From Alphaproteobacteria bacterium (lineage in GTDB: Bacteria; Pseudomonadota; Alphaproteobacteria; RF32; CAG-239), in NCBI GenBank assembly GCA_017937705.1, contig JAGBDC010000024.1, positions 11,079 through 75,078 on the forward strand: a stretch of DNA of 64,000 nucleotides, written 5' to 3'. Positions within the stretch are counted from its first letter, which is position 1; each line of letters begins with the position of its first letter. This document shows, piece after piece, positions 35,049-45,453 of this stretch. The position numbers and the translations under genes are program-made. The notes under the pieces are model-generated. The model was not told the origin of the DNA, did not search any database, and saw nothing but the letters and a program-made list of their open reading frames with translations.

Positions 35049-36719
35049 GTGGATAAAGCTATGCTATCAAAATCTATAAAATTAAGTATCTTAAGCTTGT
35101 TAGGGGTTATTTTTGCTGAACAAGCCTTTGCTCAAGCAACCATTAACAGCATGGATCAAAATGCTGATCAGTCACAAGGACAATATCAGCCTATGGATAT
35201 GAGTTATGCCGGATTTAATTCTTTAGGTATGATGCAAAGTGCATGGCTTGATCCCTTGCAAAACTTAGGAGAAGGACAATCTAAGCCGGCATATTCGAAA
35301 TATTATTGGTCACCGGATTTGGTTCTCCCTCTTCGTTTGAGAGAAGGTATGATTACTCTCATCAATTTTCCTGAATGGGAAATGGTAGAAGATATATATA
35401 TCGGTGATAACTCTACCTTTGACGGACAGATTTCAGGTCCTAGTACTCTGTTGCTATATCCTCGCAAAGGTGCAAATGTCGGTGTAGATACCAATATTAT
35501 CGTATTTGGACGTTCCGGTAATCGTTATGTCTTTTATGTTCGCAGTGAAGGCGTAAACACCGAGCGCTTAACAAACTCAATAGTTGATATTGATGTAATA
35601 GGTGATGAAAACGGAGGATCCGGCTTGGGAAAGGCTGGAGCCGGTAACAGTGGTGGTCGTGTTAATGCCAGTAAATTTTATGGAGCCGGCGGAAAATCTG
35701 TAGATTCAACTTTTACTAAGAGAAATCAAAAAAATAATTGGGTAGAGAGTGTTCCGCTCGATCCTACAAAATTTCGTTTTGACATAGAAGTTTATGTTCC
35801 AAACCCTGACGATGTTGTGATTGCTCCGGAACGTGTATGGCGAGACGATATTTTCACCTATATAGATTTAGGTGCAAAGTCGCTTAATATGACACAACGC
35901 CCGATAGTTACTCTCATTGTTGAAAGAATGGAAGTTCCTGTCGGTTTCAGAACTAAAGGGCCTAATAATCGTTTAATTATTGTTGAAGCCATCGGTGATA
36001 TGGTGCTCAGAAACGGAAAAAGAATTGTCTGCTTAAAATTACGTCGTTCGGATGATGCAGGTATTGAAGACAGTATTACTTATGCTGATGACATTACTGA
36101 CAACGAATGGGACAGAGGTGCAAAAATCCCCGAAGGAATAAAAGCCAGAGCAGGCGGTGCAAGCTATCCTGATTTAAGCATGGGAGGAGCTGGTGTTGCA
36201 GCTAATTATCCGATGGTTGATACAAGAGGCGGTGGTCAATTTGCATCTCCTGAATATGGTAATAGCGGAGCTAACGGTTTTGGCATGATGCCAAATCAAG
36301 GAGGTGTTCAAGGTCAATACGGTGCAGAATATGATGCAGGAAATGGCGGATTCGATTATTCTAAAATGCATCGTATTCAAAATACACAACAATTTGATCC
36401 TGCGGCCAGTAACTTAGCAAGCCAATATCGTTTTGGTTCTGGTTTCAGTGATGGTGCCGGTTCTAATATCTCAATAGAATTAGGAACTGATGCTAATGTA
36501 GAAAACTTAGAAAATTTATGGGATAATTTATCCGGTAAATATTCTAAAATATTAAGAAGTTATGATCCGTTTTTCTCAGTTGATGCTCCGGCAGACGGAC
36601 AAGGAAAAGAGCTTTTCCATCTTCGTATCGGACCGGTAAAAACGCTCGACGAAGGTGATAGTGTTTGCAGTAAATTGGGTAGAAATGGTGTATTTTGTAG
36701 TGTGGTCAGGACCCAATGA
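35049..36719 (+). CDS. virB9: T4SS protein VirB9 with C-terminal SPOR-like domain
   Basis: 556 aa from a GTG at 35049. An ATG at 35061 after AAGGTGG is an equally good start. A signal peptide is followed by a VirB9/CagX N-domain (LPLRLREGMITLINFP...IIVFGRSGNRYVFYV) and C-domain (PERVWRDDIFTYIDLG...). A Gly-rich linker leads to ISIELGTD...FHLRIGPVKTLDEGDSVCSKLGRNGVFCSVV, which fits the SPOR (PF05036) pattern. Confidence 0.8.
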   Translation: MDKAMLSKSIKLSILSLLGVIFAEQAFAQATINSMDQNADQSQGQYQPMDMSYAGFNSLGMMQSAWLDPLQNLGEGQSKPAYSKYYWSPDLVLPLRLREGMITLINFPEWEMVEDIYIGDNSTFDGQISGPSTLLLYPRKGANVGVDTNIIVFGRSGNRYVFYVRSEGVNTERLTNSIVDIDVIGDENGGSGLGKAGAGNSGGRVNASKFYGAGGKSVDSTFTKRNQKNNWVESVPLDPTKFRFDIEVYVPNPDDVVIAPERVWRDDIFTYIDLGAKSLNMTQRPIVTLIVERMEVPVGFRTKGPNNRLIIVEAIGDMVLRNGKRIVCLKLRRSDDAGIEDSITYADDITDNEWDRGAKIPEGIKARAGGASYPDLSMGGAGVAANYPMVDTRGGGQFASPEYGNSGANGFGMMPNQGGVQGQYGAEYDAGNGGFDYSKMHRIQNTQQFDPAASNLASQYRFGSGFSDGAGSNISIELGTDANVENLENLWDNLSGKYSKILRSYDPFFSVDAPADGQGKELFHLRIGPVKTLDEGDSVCSKLGRNGVFCSVVRTQ

Positions 36720-44100: not shown

Positions 44101-45453
44101 ATAGCATTGACACCGGATGGAGAGTATTTAGGTGATATTCTTGAAGATGGAAGTGTTATCAATAAAGCCGGTAAAGTTTTAGGAAGATTGCTACCGGACG
44201 GATTGGTCGTTGATGATCAAGGTTCTCTAATCGGTATAGAAGAGTCTGCAAAAAAGAGCGAAAAAAGCGAAATGTTTGTTCCTGCCGGAAGTTTTGGTGA
44301 TGGTGGAGCATACGGAATCGGAACCGGACCGGGTAATTTAGGACCGGGAGGCGGTTTTGGTCCGGGAGAAAGATATGATGTTCAACGTTCTGCCGCATTG
44401 AGTGCAGCTCAGGGTGAGCGTCGTCAAAATATGGAAGTAGGAAAGATAAGTACGAATCACAGTAAAGAGGCTTTTGATCAAAAACAAAAAGATTGGGGAG
44501 TGAAAAAGGTTATTTCTACTTGGCCGGTTGATATGGATATGATGATTTTGGCTGATAAACCTATTCCTGCGGTTATCGCACGTTCTATTGATACCGAACA
44601 CGAAGTTCCGGTTACAGCCTTTGTTGAAAGAAATGTATATGCTGAAGACGGAAGAAATATCATTATTCCAGCCGGTAGCCGATTGATGGGAAGCTGTGGG
44701 GGCGGCGATGGCGGATCTGAAGAATCTTCAGCTTCTGCCCGTATAAGCATCCAATGGGATAGATTGATTTTGCCTAATGGTGTTATGTTTGATATAAGCA
44801 GTGCACAAAGCGGTGATGCTCAAGGACGCGGTGGTGTTTTAGGATATCTTGATCGTCAATTGGTTAAAAAATATGCGATGCCTCTTGTTACTTCTTTAGC
44901 TAAAAACGGTCTGGCAATCTTGTTTGCGACTAAAGAACAAACTCAAACAGATGTGGCAACATCTAAACAAGAAGCTATGAATGATGCTCGAGAAGAATTT
45001 TTGAATGATTCTCAGCAAATGTTCCAACAAATATTGTCTGACAGGGCAAATATTCGTGCAATTACTTATATTCCTGCCGGTACCAGAATTACCGTTTATC
45101 CGAAAGTAGATTTATGGTTAAGAACAGTAGAAAACGATGCTGAAGCAAGTGATAATACAGAATATAAAGATGTATTAATTGACGATAAGGCCACATCAAA
45201 TAAACGAGCCAGCGACGAAGCAGATCGTAAAGCAAACTTCGGTAAGGGAATGTCATCTGTGGTGTATGAGGAAGAAGAAACCGATGCCAAACCTGCAATG
45301 GCTTTAGTAGATGACGTTGCCGCTTCGGGTAGTAAAAAACGTCGTCCTACCGGAGCAACTCCACCACCACCTCCGAGTGCCGGTGTAGTATCTGCTAACA
45401 GACCATCGTCAAGCAGTTCTGGTAGTAGCAGTGATGTTCCGCAACTATTCTAA
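41131..45453 (+). CDS. virB10: T4SS protein VirB10 with ~1000-aa N-terminal repeat expansion
   Basis: 1440 aa with a TTG start 7 nt after GGAGGA. A signal/anchor sequence is followed by the same ~17-residue repeat family up to about aa 1000. A Gly-rich linker leads to a TrbI/VirB10 domain (WPVDMDMMILADKPIPAVIARSIDTE...IIIPAGSRLMG...ARISIQWDRLILPNGVMFDI...GYLDRQL). A Pro/Ser-rich C-terminal tail follows. Confidence 0.8.
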   Translation: MILKLNSKICKFFQTIGLAVFMLCSGNAVAQEITAIDFNGDLIGKVIPDGKVVSFDNQLIGNITADSLIVDFNGKLIGGVIPRGIAIGNDNRMLGKVSNDGTVRLSTGKIIGKVLPNGLVVDDKFDILGSVLFPGLIYSDEGQTMGRLTGDGMYANLQGQTIGFVSPDGYAYRKIGNDYILDGRLISSKMVIDSTGQFIGSIAPGGKITNFDGKNIGFIKANGFAYNEDNKVIGSIVRSGYAFDIAGKYLGLVTYNGEVINGEKLVGYLQVDGSIANTGGEIIGFMVDIAATAADNTGKYLGRIMPEGKIARGRNIIGQIGPWNVIYDREGNQIGKEIISGPIFDYRGGLRAHALKNGRVILLGGTPLGTMKGDLAIDSTGQVIGSVLRNQVVFNANNQPMGITGINSTITNSDDTRIVSPFGYVYNPEGGIDGSTVPLGGVFGLGGSPLAMISPNGELINKGAVQQGKLTQFGFDISERNAVLGGNINVDYAVDFKGASLGALADGNQILNKNLDVFAKILPDMSVISGVDKSTYMPVEGKASSATLALAYDGTLLGFVDNQGLVKDAASTIVGKVSSKGMVFDNTGISIGEVINYSPVINNKCEFIGVVSPSGEVKNYREVSMGKALANGNVVADGGSMIGFAIPKGTIVDFGGQVIGTTTSNGKVLNYSGENLGCIDRQHRLYNKQNALIGKLAIIAPVMDLNNKIIGRSMIDGSVVNDSSQNIGYILPDDSVNSKTGEKMGMLFKYRYAFDKNNKLAGIVNDKAEVINSKGQKTGNVDIDGNATINGDSKGYALYDMYVYGDNNTVIGYIAPDGNIISFTNQKLGKLVRGFAVDNKGKMFARGNRDFYIANKNGDTIGELRFDGNVVNNNGEVIGSLGVAGDIEATDGEVIATAKPLQYYEAEKKKPVYDQNGNVIGYVGEDNKIVDAKGNLIGQLAKDGSAISVDGDVIGNTKLDWYERPTVRDQNLPEVGSIEVKESDYKKSVNIALTPDGEYLGDILEDGSVINKAGKVLGRLLPDGLVVDDQGSLIGIEESAKKSEKSEMFVPAGSFGDGGAYGIGTGPGNLGPGGGFGPGERYDVQRSAALSAAQGERRQNMEVGKISTNHSKEAFDQKQKDWGVKKVISTWPVDMDMMILADKPIPAVIARSIDTEHEVPVTAFVERNVYAEDGRNIIIPAGSRLMGSCGGGDGGSEESSASARISIQWDRLILPNGVMFDISSAQSGDAQGRGGVLGYLDRQLVKKYAMPLVTSLAKNGLAILFATKEQTQTDVATSKQEAMNDAREEFLNDSQQMFQQILSDRANIRAITYIPAGTRITVYPKVDLWLRTVENDAEASDNTEYKDVLIDDKATSNKRASDEADRKANFGKGMSSVVYEEEETDAKPAMALVDDVAASGSKKRRPTGATPPPPPSAGVVSANRPSSSSSGSSSDVPQLF

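Follow-up and report, generated by a model that had tools for sequence, protein, structure and literature searches.

A probable natural division of VirB10 between two giant hairpin-repeat proteins in gut Alphaproteobacteria

Two adjacent genes of a type IV secretion system (T4SS) operon, here called A and B, encode giant proteins built largely from the same short hairpin repeat. They lie on a 64,000-nucleotide stretch of DNA from an uncultured alphaproteobacterium (contig JAGBDC010000024.1, positions 11,079 to 75,078), hereafter the window. Our analysis indicates that A is probably the inner-membrane half, and B the outer-membrane half, of a naturally split, repeat-expanded VirB10. In T4SSs, VirB10 is the signature component that spans the envelope, and it is regarded as the energy sensor through which outer-membrane channel gating is coupled to the inner-membrane ATPases. 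Its hallmark, an N-terminal tail, a transmembrane (TM) helix and a barrel on one polypeptide, is found on neither A nor B alone, but it is found on the two taken together.

A carries a VirB10 anchor and B a VirB10 barrel

An earlier sequence-only reading of this DNA had described A and B as adjacent open reading frames (ORFs), and both the coordinates and the lengths that it gave were exact. The two genes and their parts are as follows.

36716–41128, plus strand: gene A, 1470 aa, ATG start (ORF; Pfam Bflower_2, Bflower and DUF3659)
36716–36844, plus strand: A residues 1–43, cytoplasmic tail (L.HS..Y.KK.NR) and single TM helix, residues 19–41 (hydropathy, conservation)
36977–37303, plus strand: A residues 88–196, ASH/PapD-like Ig β-sandwich (AlphaFold2 (AF2) model, predicted local confidence (pLDDT) 85–93; Foldseek)
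37391–41125, plus strand: A residues 226–1470, hairpin array of 17-residue units with consensus SDGLVVDKNGKVIGYVL
38330–39124, plus strand: A residues 539–803, five copies of a ~53-aa three-hairpin super-repeat
41118–41122, plus strand: GGAGG Shine-Dalgarno sequence for B, in the last codons of A and 8 nt before the TTG start of B
41131–45453, plus strand: gene B, 1440 aa, TTG start (ORF, Pfam, structure-chain matches)
41131–41220, plus strand: B residues 1–30, predicted Sec-type signal peptide ending in AVA and followed by QE (sequence pattern)
41221–41730, plus strand: B residues 31–200, first ten hairpins of mature B, candidate docking surface (conservation)
41221–44244, plus strand: B residues 31–1038, hairpin array, more degenerate than that of A (profile, Pfam)
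44245–44535, plus strand: B residues 1039–1135, Gly/Pro-rich flexible linker and pre-barrel segment
44536–45123, plus strand: B residues 1136–1331, VirB10/TrbI β-barrel (Pfam PF03743, E = 2.6e-34)
45124–45450, plus strand: B residues 1332–1440, low-complexity tail (109 aa), acidic and then Pro/Ser-rich

Hydropathy identified a single segment of TM strength in A, at residues 19–41, and none in B. The helix of A is preceded by basic residues, which implies an N-in topology, and both tail and helix are conserved among A-type proteins and the single-chain giants described below. The Ig β-sandwich has its best PDB matches, by Foldseek on the AF2 model, in the ASH domains of HYDIN and CEP192 and the Ig domains of VesB/VesC (E ~1e-6). 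A conserved DCxxC motif, at residues 200–204, falls just after the sandwich. The array that follows is regular in its N-terminal half and degenerate in its C-terminal half, where it contains four cysteines (917, 968, 989 and 1040). Further conserved cysteines lie within the Ig region, and together these residues are consistent with an extracytoplasmic location. A ends in a nearly invariant ...EVAKNRRN, and its last 30 residues, with a conservation score of 0.72, are among the most conserved of the protein. The order of TM helix, Ig-like module and repeats is the one that the sequence-only reading had proposed for A.

B had been described as starting with a signal or anchor sequence. The signal peptide part of this description stands, as the segment has the A-x-A ending of such peptides; the anchor part does not, as B has no segment of TM strength. 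Among 22 B-type homologues the pre-sequence is highly variable, always ends in A/S-x-A, and is followed by the almost invariant (Q/I)EITAIDFNGDLIGKVIPDGKVV. A variable pre-sequence joined at such a site to an invariant mature start is the pattern of a cleaved Sec signal peptide. If B is cleaved here, the predicted semi-tryptic peptide would be QEITAIDFNGDLIGK. Residues 31–200 are the most conserved part of B, with 0.96–0.80 identity to the window sequence over 23 B-type proteins, compared to 0.46–0.87 in the barrel. The extreme C-terminus is moderately conserved.

The barrel assignment is supported by both sequence families and known structures. The PF03743 alignment runs from residue 1139 to residue 1330 of B and covers model positions 2–188 of 188 (187 of the 188). 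Among PDB chains, the barrel matched ComB10 (8.5e-19), TrwE (1.3e-8), CagY (9e-8), VirB10 (3.8e-5) and TraF (6e-4). The segment before it, residues 1039–1135, maps uniquely onto the pre-barrel region of the single-chain giants. An array of about 1000 aa followed by a TrbI/VirB10 barrel had been claimed for B and was found.

A terminates with TGA at 41126–41128, and the two genes are 2 nt apart in different frames. The same close spacing, 1–2 nt, is seen in relatives. A and B are translationally coupled.

Homologues and origin of A and B

A search with A returned A-type proteins of 929–1581 aa and many single proteins of 2100–2480 aa with a TrbI domain, which we refer to as single giants. The single giants align over ~99% of A and resemble it at the start: a conserved tail (SExYxKKSNR) and one TM helix are followed by an Ig-like region, in which cysteines and tryptophan are conserved, and by DCxxC. 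In three loci (L010, L011 and L012), one protein of 2187–2354 aa lies directly between virB9 and virB11, without a separate A gene. The order virB9, VirB10 gene or genes, virB11 is identical in all relatives compared (L001–L012), and in the window it reads virB9, A, B, virB11. The split layout is kept in 9 of the 9 two-gene loci examined (L001–L009), on independent contigs from many samples, with B 49–94% identical. Database labels of the giants and their relatives include 'hypothetical', 'DUF3659 domain-containing', 'TrbI/VirB10 family' and '5-fold beta-flower protein'.

Profile comparison with hhalign related the N-terminus of A to that of VirB10. The A-type N-terminus aligned with the N-terminus of ordinary VirB10, in its Ig region, at 97.6% (E 3e-12), and a single giant aligned with it at 98.9% (E 2e-17), tail and TM helix included. 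A aligned with the single giants at 99.9% (E 1.5e-34), starting at residue 5. By these sequence comparisons, A carries the authentic VirB10 N-terminal module of tail, TM helix and ASH/PapD-like Ig domain. This overturns the earlier view of A as a second, VirB10-less array inserted between virB9 and virB10, as A holds the N-terminal module of VirB10 itself.

The barrel of B was searched on its own against 1.8 billion representative proteins. The top ~65 matches (at least 155 bits and at least 41% identity) were giants or fragments of giants, and hairpin units were present in every sufficiently long barrel neighbour at or above 155 bits. No hairpin units occurred in the next tier (35–39% identity, 360–690 aa). 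This distribution indicates that the expansion arose once in this VirB10 clade. The repeat-free tier includes VirB10 proteins of Microvirga species and of a Beijerinckiaceae metagenome-assembled genome (MAG), of 560–630 aa with TrbI barrels. In the Microvirga-type proteins, tail, TM helix and Ig module are followed by a Pro-rich linker. The proteins form a series from an ordinary Ig-bearing VirB10, through a single giant with hairpin arrays in place of the linker, to the split pair. Outgroup and single giants alike consist of one chain, which makes the split the derived state.

To place A and B on the single giants, 120-aa windows of both proteins were compared with five giants. Only residues 1–240 of A, at the giant N-terminus, and residues 1021–1440 of B, at the giant C-terminus, map uniquely; within the arrays, the best and second-best placements score nearly equal. 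In the best global alignment, A covers giant positions 1 to ~1550 and B covers ~800 to the end, an overlap of ~700 residues. A chimeric query made of the end of A and the start of B aligned to giant positions 244–469, and its A-derived half was not position-specific. The arrays of A and B are 25–27% identical to each other.

One further protein, P0414 (815 aa, from a metagenome), combines Bflower, RHS and DUF3659 hairpins with a bactofilin domain (PF04519) and a TrbI barrel, and is another variant of the expanded VirB10 theme.

The hairpin repeat belongs to the β-flower families

A common repeat of ~17 residues had been reported in both proteins, and its periodicity was readily detected. Self-identity peaks at lags of 17, 34, 51 and 68 residues, at 0.207, 0.176, 0.157 and 0.124 in A (~0.10 elsewhere) and at 0.143, 0.124, 0.115 and 0.101 in B. 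The G..[VILM]G motif of A recurs at a spacing of exactly 17 residues in 25 of 49 instances. An iteratively built repeat profile, with the consensus given in the list above, detected 52 units in A (residues 226–1444) and 27 in B (residues 31–1038). Detected units are separated by distances close to multiples of 17 (17, 33–35, 66–67, 104 and 190), indicating that degenerate units occupy the gaps. Division of span by period gives ~72 units for A and ~59 for B, ~131 in all, close to the earlier estimates of ~70 and ~55.

The repeat does not represent an unknown family. Pfam assigns it to the curated families Bflower_2, Bflower and DUF3659, all of which score far above RHS. On A, Bflower_2 (PF21785) reached 1e-103 and 341 bits, Bflower (PF21784) 8e-49 and 165 bits, and DUF3659 1e-48. 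On B, Bflower_2 reached 1.8e-60 and 202 bits, Bflower 7e-19 and 69 bits, and DUF3659 7.6e-6. The cut-offs are 38 bits for Bflower_2 and 25 bits for Bflower. The [DNEQ]xxG motif occurs 103 times in A and 55 times in B. The β-flower families date from 2023 and derive from AlphaFold models of small 8–12-stranded barrels, in which each petal is a hairpin with a [DNEQ]xxG turn (Durairaj et al. 2023, PMC10584680).

A resemblance to YD/Rhs repeats had also been suggested, and it holds as a weak and local one. The Pfam RHS_repeat score on A sums to 68 bits (E 7.7e-19) with no individual stretch passing, and A marginally matches Rhs chain 7q97 (4.8e-4). On B there was no RHS_repeat match at E 0.01 or better. 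An Rhs core or DPxGL-type autoproteolysis motif is absent from both proteins, and Pfam found no toxin domain in them. The extension of this resemblance to an Rhs-like shell was not borne out.

Structure prediction gave a clear secondary structure of regular hairpins. The AF2 model of A residues 45–640 has a mean pLDDT of 75 and shows a two-strand hairpin for each 17 residues after the Ig sandwich. Strands of 5 and 3 residues alternate within each 17-residue unit, with pLDDT ~75–90. A model of repeats alone (A residues 226–530) has pLDDT 76 and a predicted TM-score (pTM) of 0.46, and pTM over all models is 0.36–0.46. When the repeat-only model was compared with the PDB by Foldseek, Rhs cores, YenB/RHS2 and teneurins came first (E 8e-12 to 1e-5), with a TM-score of ~0.12 and a root-mean-square deviation (rmsd) of ~20 Å for these Rhs-type matches. 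Against a viral library, adenovirus fibre shafts, MORN proteins and tail fibres ranked first. Three Foldseek searches gave no global structural match for the arrays, the Tubby-like fold included (TM-score ≤0.17, rmsd ~20–40 Å). As modeled, the repeat resembles hairpin repeats in general, and the likeness does not extend to a global fold. In the models, short linkers and breaks of low confidence occur after each 3 or 6 units, not 4 or 5. This spacing suggests a three-hairpin structural module, rather than the 4 or 5 petals of the Pfam family names.

Strain variation in gene A

Length variation between strains is concentrated in the five-copy super-repeat of A. Each copy follows the pattern LAYDxxGN.(I/M)GY.D /.G.V.DF.G..IG / ..G.I.D..GN.IG. 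When A was compared with its counterparts in L001, L002, L004, L009 and L007, all insertions and deletions fell within residues 531–805, in blocks of ~55, ~102 and ~157 aa. These blocks are whole copies of the 53-aa three-hairpin cassette, and this is the sole length-polymorphic site between the strains compared. Relative to the five copies in the window, there is one more in L001, two more in L004 and three more in L002, and there are fewer in L009 and L007. Among relatives A ranges from 1146 to 1629 aa, and B is constant at 1439–1459 aa in close relatives.

At the DNA level, Tandem Repeats Finder detected no tandem repeats in either array. Dispersed DNA copies in the arrays are 60–81% identical, and cassette copies reach up to 80% over 132 nt. 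Recombination between DNA repeats in the manner of CagY was considered as a source of the variation and is disfavoured, with DNA copies at most 81% identical.

Proposed architecture and alternative explanations

In the arrangement that we propose, A would be inserted N-in in the inner membrane, with an ectodomain of ~1400 aa in the periplasm. B would be exported by Sec and cleaved, and its barrel would join VirB9 and VirB7 under the outer membrane. In characterised systems, VirB9 and VirB7 accompany the TrbI barrel at the outer membrane. Because A is anchored N-in, B has a Sec export signal and conserved cysteines are present, both hairpin arrays are expected to occupy the periplasm. There they would build a much enlarged scaffold around the channel, by analogy with CagY and DotG/DotF. 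The link between inner and outer membrane would be re-made non-covalently between A and B. The likeliest contact would be that of the almost invariant first ten hairpins of B with A, whose last 30 residues are highly conserved. The variable three-hairpin cassette would make the inner-membrane half differ in length or surface from strain to strain. The fullest form of this model joins the VirB10 halves by hairpin-array association alone, in a previously unseen periplasmic superstructure with a strain-variable cassette module, and sets it in an rvh-like core-genome T4SS, accompanied by a type IVb pilus, of prevalent but uncultured Alphaproteobacteria of the human gut. We advance this full form tentatively, as somewhat short of an even chance. 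With ~130 hairpins per A–B pair, the superstructure would be in the megadalton range if the usual 13–14-fold core symmetry applies.

Several observations weigh against a simple split or temper the model. A and B together have ~131 units, compared to ~95 in a single giant, and this excess, together with the ~700-residue overlap on the giants, indicates that the pair did not arise by a simple cut. The conserved N-terminal block of B maps with a modest margin to giant positions ~324–564, near the start of the array, which fits B as the main orthologue and A as a truncated duplicate. By this mapping, duplication with complementary loss is slightly preferred to a simple cut, and fission followed by expansion of the regular repeats of A is a possible alternative origin. 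Cleavage of the signal peptide and the periplasmic location are predicted from sequence. The case for A–B contact through the conserved ends is circumstantial rather than direct. As modeled, the array may form closed flowers, a solenoid or a fibre in three dimensions. No relaxase, VirD4 or polytopic VirB6 is encoded within the 64-kb window, and no T4SS substrate is visible there. The mechanism is one that we infer, for an organism that is uncultured.

The only serious rival to the split reading takes A as a truncated tandem duplicate that acts as an independent accessory, such as a DotF-like ring component or spacer. B would then be the sole VirB10, unanchored, with no bridge to A, so that the two explanations differ solely in whether A and B physically reconnect. 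This rival would account for the mapping of the conserved block of B to the start of the giants' array, for the mere 25–27% identity between the two arrays, for a unit number in A plus B above that of any single giant, and for a variable A (1146–1629 aa) beside a B that is constant among close relatives. However, the VirB10 tail, TM helix and Ig module are found on A alone, and B-type proteins have no alternative anchor. Every two-gene locus seen has also kept A, next to B and in translational coupling with it. We consider an unconnected A unlikely. That the arrays serve mainly as cell-wall- or glycan-binding modules, fastening the machine to peptidoglycan rather than forming a protein scaffold, is distinctly unlikely, although the choline-binding proteins CbpF and CbpJ are among the weaker fold matches (E ~1e-3) and the adjoining VirB9 has a SPOR peptidoglycan-binding domain. 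Those fold matches have TM-scores of 0.1 or less, neither ligand-binding residues nor the aromatic pairs of choline- or cell-wall-binding repeats were identified in the arrays, and ~130 units per A–B pair far exceeds what anchoring needs. Wall binding and a split VirB10 are compatible and not alternatives.

Whole-cassette differences at one site, in gut-associated bacteria with a type IVb pilus cluster beside the operon, could also be read as marks of a surface-exposed, antigenically variable adhesin or host-contact element. A would then resemble the repeat region of CagY, with recombination changing the cassette number so as to tune host responses or evade them. We regard this as very unlikely, as the inner-membrane anchor of A leaves it without an evident way to reach the surface, and the length-invariant half is B, the outer-membrane one. 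Rearrangement of cagY is driven by near-identical DNA repeats, whereas the cassette copies are 60–81% identical and none is tandemly identical. A shell of YD/Rhs repeats around a cargo or toxin delivered by the T4SS would explain the summed RHS_repeat score on A (E 7.7e-19), its marginal match to 7q97 and the Rhs cores, YenB/RHS2 and teneurins at the head of the Foldseek PDB list (E 8e-12 to 1e-5). This shell is nevertheless highly improbable: no single RHS stretch passes, B has no RHS match, and the structural matches have a TM-score of ~0.12 and an rmsd of ~20 Å. In addition, neither an Rhs core or DPxGL motif nor a C-terminal toxin domain was found, the 17-residue period is shorter than that of the YD repeat, and the β-flower families score far higher. 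Finally, the existence of single giant VirB10 genes in related lineages, together with two genes 2 nt apart in different frames, might point to an assembly or frameshift artefact of one giant gene. This explanation was rejected, and its chance is negligible. The split, the signal peptide of B and the ...EVAKNRRN end of A recur in independent assemblies at 49–94% identity, B has its own GGAGG ribosome-binding site, and there are no near-identical DNA repeats that could collapse in assembly. The sequence-only reading had named such an artefact as a risk, and the frames are sound on this point, with no tandem DNA repeats in the arrays.

Comparison with known secretion systems and repeat proteins

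Canonical VirB10/TrbI proteins (A. tumefaciens VirB10, pKM101 TraF, R388 TrwE and H. pylori ComB10) have a C-terminal barrel homologous to that of B, and the canonical gene lies between virB9 and virB11, as here. Canonical VirB10 is reportedly one chain, of ~220–400 aa in solved constructs, that bridges both membranes through a Pro-rich linker. Here, by comparison, anchor and barrel are on two polypeptides, ~130 hairpin units stand in place of the linker, and an ASH-type Ig domain follows the TM helix. The canonical logic of N-terminal tail, single TM helix and C-terminal outer-membrane barrel is preserved across the A–B pair. The nearest repeat-free relatives by barrel, at 35–39% identity, are the Ig-bearing VirB10 proteins of free-living Hyphomicrobiales (Microvirga and Beijerinckiaceae MAGs). 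They share the tail, TM helix and Ig domain, but each is one chain with a Pro-rich linker and lacks hairpin units. The single giants of gut and rumen Alphaproteobacteria (e.g. P0155, P0185 and P0204) share the N-terminal module, hairpin family, barrel and operon position. They are one polypeptide, whereas the lineage of the window has two genes, the second with a gained signal peptide.

CagY and DotG/DotF offer a parallel in architecture, as repeat-expanded VirB10 homologues with enlarged core complexes like the one proposed here. The sequence-only reading had drawn this analogy for CagY and DotG, and it is a reasonable one, as the barrel of B is preceded by a long repeat region. The repeat regions of CagY are of a type of its own, and those of DotG consist of pentapeptide repeats. 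The repeats of A and B had been called unrelated to these, which agrees with our results: the barrel is the sole CagY match of B (residues 1134–1328), and Pfam places the repeats in the β-flower families rather than with pentapeptide or CagY repeats. DotF is a separate inner-membrane-anchored partner of DotG, and is thus a functional parallel to A. CagY and DotG each keep their own membrane anchor, unlike B, and CagY varies through near-identical DNA repeats, unlike the 60–81% identical copies here.

The hairpin motif with [DNEQ]xxG turns is shared with the β-flower proteins (PF21784, PF21785 and PF21786; clan CL0395). Described β-flowers are small closed barrels of ~96 residues with 4–6 petals, and are often lipoproteins (Durairaj et al. 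2023, PMC10584680). The arrays reported here, in contrast, have ~60–70 hairpins each and lie in a T4SS core subunit. Rhs/YD repeats have a local hairpin likeness to them, both in sequence and in the 3Di alphabet, but differ in that the arrays have no global fold match to them, no Rhs core or toxin domain and a shorter period.

The rvh T4SS of Rickettsiales has the gene order virB8-virB7-virB8-virB9-virB10-virB11, with a duplicated VirB8 (PMC2653234). The operon in the window has the same order from virB8 to virB11 and, like rvh, is chromosomal, alphaproteobacterial and provided with several VirB2-like genes. It differs in that RvhB10 is an ordinary single protein and in that the window shows no VirB6 paralogues. 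The only split gene reported in the Rickettsia rvh paper is virB6d (PMC2653234). The host bacteria also differ, with genomes of ~2 Mb and, in at least one relative (L011), flagellar genes.

Implications

If the split reading is correct, VirB10 is naturally divided, even though it is the one T4SS subunit believed to require an unbroken chain between the two membranes if it is to relay conformational signals driven by ATP. The split lineage would be a natural experiment on whether covalent VirB10 continuity is required for signal transmission, and the pair also bears on how an expanded periplasmic scaffold is assembled. The β-flower hairpin repeat, known until now mainly from predicted structures of small proteins, is placed for the first time in a clear cellular setting, as the periplasmic portion of a secretion-core subunit. 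The three-hairpin cassette could serve as a strain marker. The proteins turned up on hundreds of contigs, and the bacteria recur in human and animal gut metagenomes. A conserved chromosomal T4SS beside a type IVb pilus suggests an undescribed contact-dependent interaction in the gut.

Repeat-expanded VirB10 proteins, the Pfam hairpin family and the database labels of the relatives are already known. The searchable literature contains no paper that links VirB10 with DUF3659 or β-flower repeats, none that describes a split VirB10, and no description of a T4SS in RF32 or CAG-239 gut Alphaproteobacteria. A VirB10 clade with a β-flower-type hairpin array as its periplasmic linker, the natural separation of the VirB10 anchor from the VirB10 barrel, and the cassette polymorphism of A each appear to be undescribed there.

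The T4SS operon and its surroundings

A and B take up 8738 of the 25585 nt of the operon from virB2 to virB11, or 34%, in agreement with an earlier estimate of about one third. The other genes of the operon are as follows.

20852–21190 and 21274–21612, plus strand: two VirB2 pilins
21627–22991, plus strand: VirB2-like 454-aa protein
23125–23415, plus strand: VirB3
23405–25837, plus strand: VirB4
25916–33247, plus strand: four secreted coiled-coil proteins (519, 214, 402 and 1308 aa)
33261–34019, plus strand: VirB8
34119–34307, plus strand: VirB7-like lipoprotein, 62 aa, lipobox LLTGC, between the two virB8 genes
34319–35047, plus strand: VirB8, second copy
35049–36719, plus strand: VirB9/CagX homologue, 556 aa (Pfam CagX 9.5e-12, SPOR 3.3e-5)
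45468–46436, plus strand: VirB11 ATPase, directly after B (Pfam T2SSE 2.1e-19)

The stop codon of virB9 overlaps the start of gene A by 4 nt. VirB9 is long, and its SPOR peptidoglycan-binding domain is at the C-terminal end (residues 474–554); we know of no SPOR domain on VirB9 in characterised systems. The VirB7-like lipoprotein position is occupied by a gene for 58–70 aa in all relatives compared, and virB11 directly follows the VirB10 gene in all of them too.

Upstream, the 454-aa protein, which Pfam does not match, has a VirB2-like hydrophobic hairpin (…VVGGIGLITFTFAAIFGKISFKHL…) and, after it, a long extension rich in Gly/Ser and Asn/Gln. Three secreted, acidic coiled-coil proteins of 519, 214 and 402 aa are encoded consecutively at 25916–29324, between virB4 and the gene for the 1308-aa protein. 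None of the three matches Pfam, and they could be VirB5-like or pilus-tip components. The 1308-aa protein (29321–33247), secreted and rich in coiled coils, occupies the position expected for VirB6. It is kept in relatives at 1264–1417 aa (e.g. L007 1–3099 and L009 1–2448) and has no Pfam match.

The operon is flanked by housekeeping genes (tgt, ABC transporters, and Mrp- or Nuo-type subunits). The sole Rfam matches in the window are two tRNA genes on the minus strand, at 1291–1363 and 53362–53434. Neither borders the T4SS locus, so the tRNA genes give no hint of an island integrated at a tRNA. The most similar loci are in gut MAGs that carry the label Alphaproteobacteria or 'uncultured Azospirillum sp.' and derive from human samples and roe deer colon; one relative lies on a 2.0-Mb contig. 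The T4SS is a chromosomal system of uncultured gut Alphaproteobacteria, rvh-like by gene order.

Upstream of the T4SS operon and divergent from it is a complete-looking type IVb pilus cluster (9783–18840, minus strand). Its genes encode two bundlin/PilS-type pilins, a T2SSF platform protein, a T2SSE ATPase, a PilO accessory protein, a secretin and TcpQ. Between this cluster and the operon lies a gene for a 530-aa Lys/Glu/Ser-rich protein with an N-terminal hydrophobic segment (18928–20520, minus strand), which has no Pfam match. In L011 (1–885 and 17864–25407), from a lineage with a single giant, a VirD4-type coupling protein is encoded ~9 kb upstream on the opposite strand. Flagellar genes (FlaF, a FliI-type ATPase and FliJ) flank the T4SS of the same locus, indicating that this relative, at least, encodes flagellar components.

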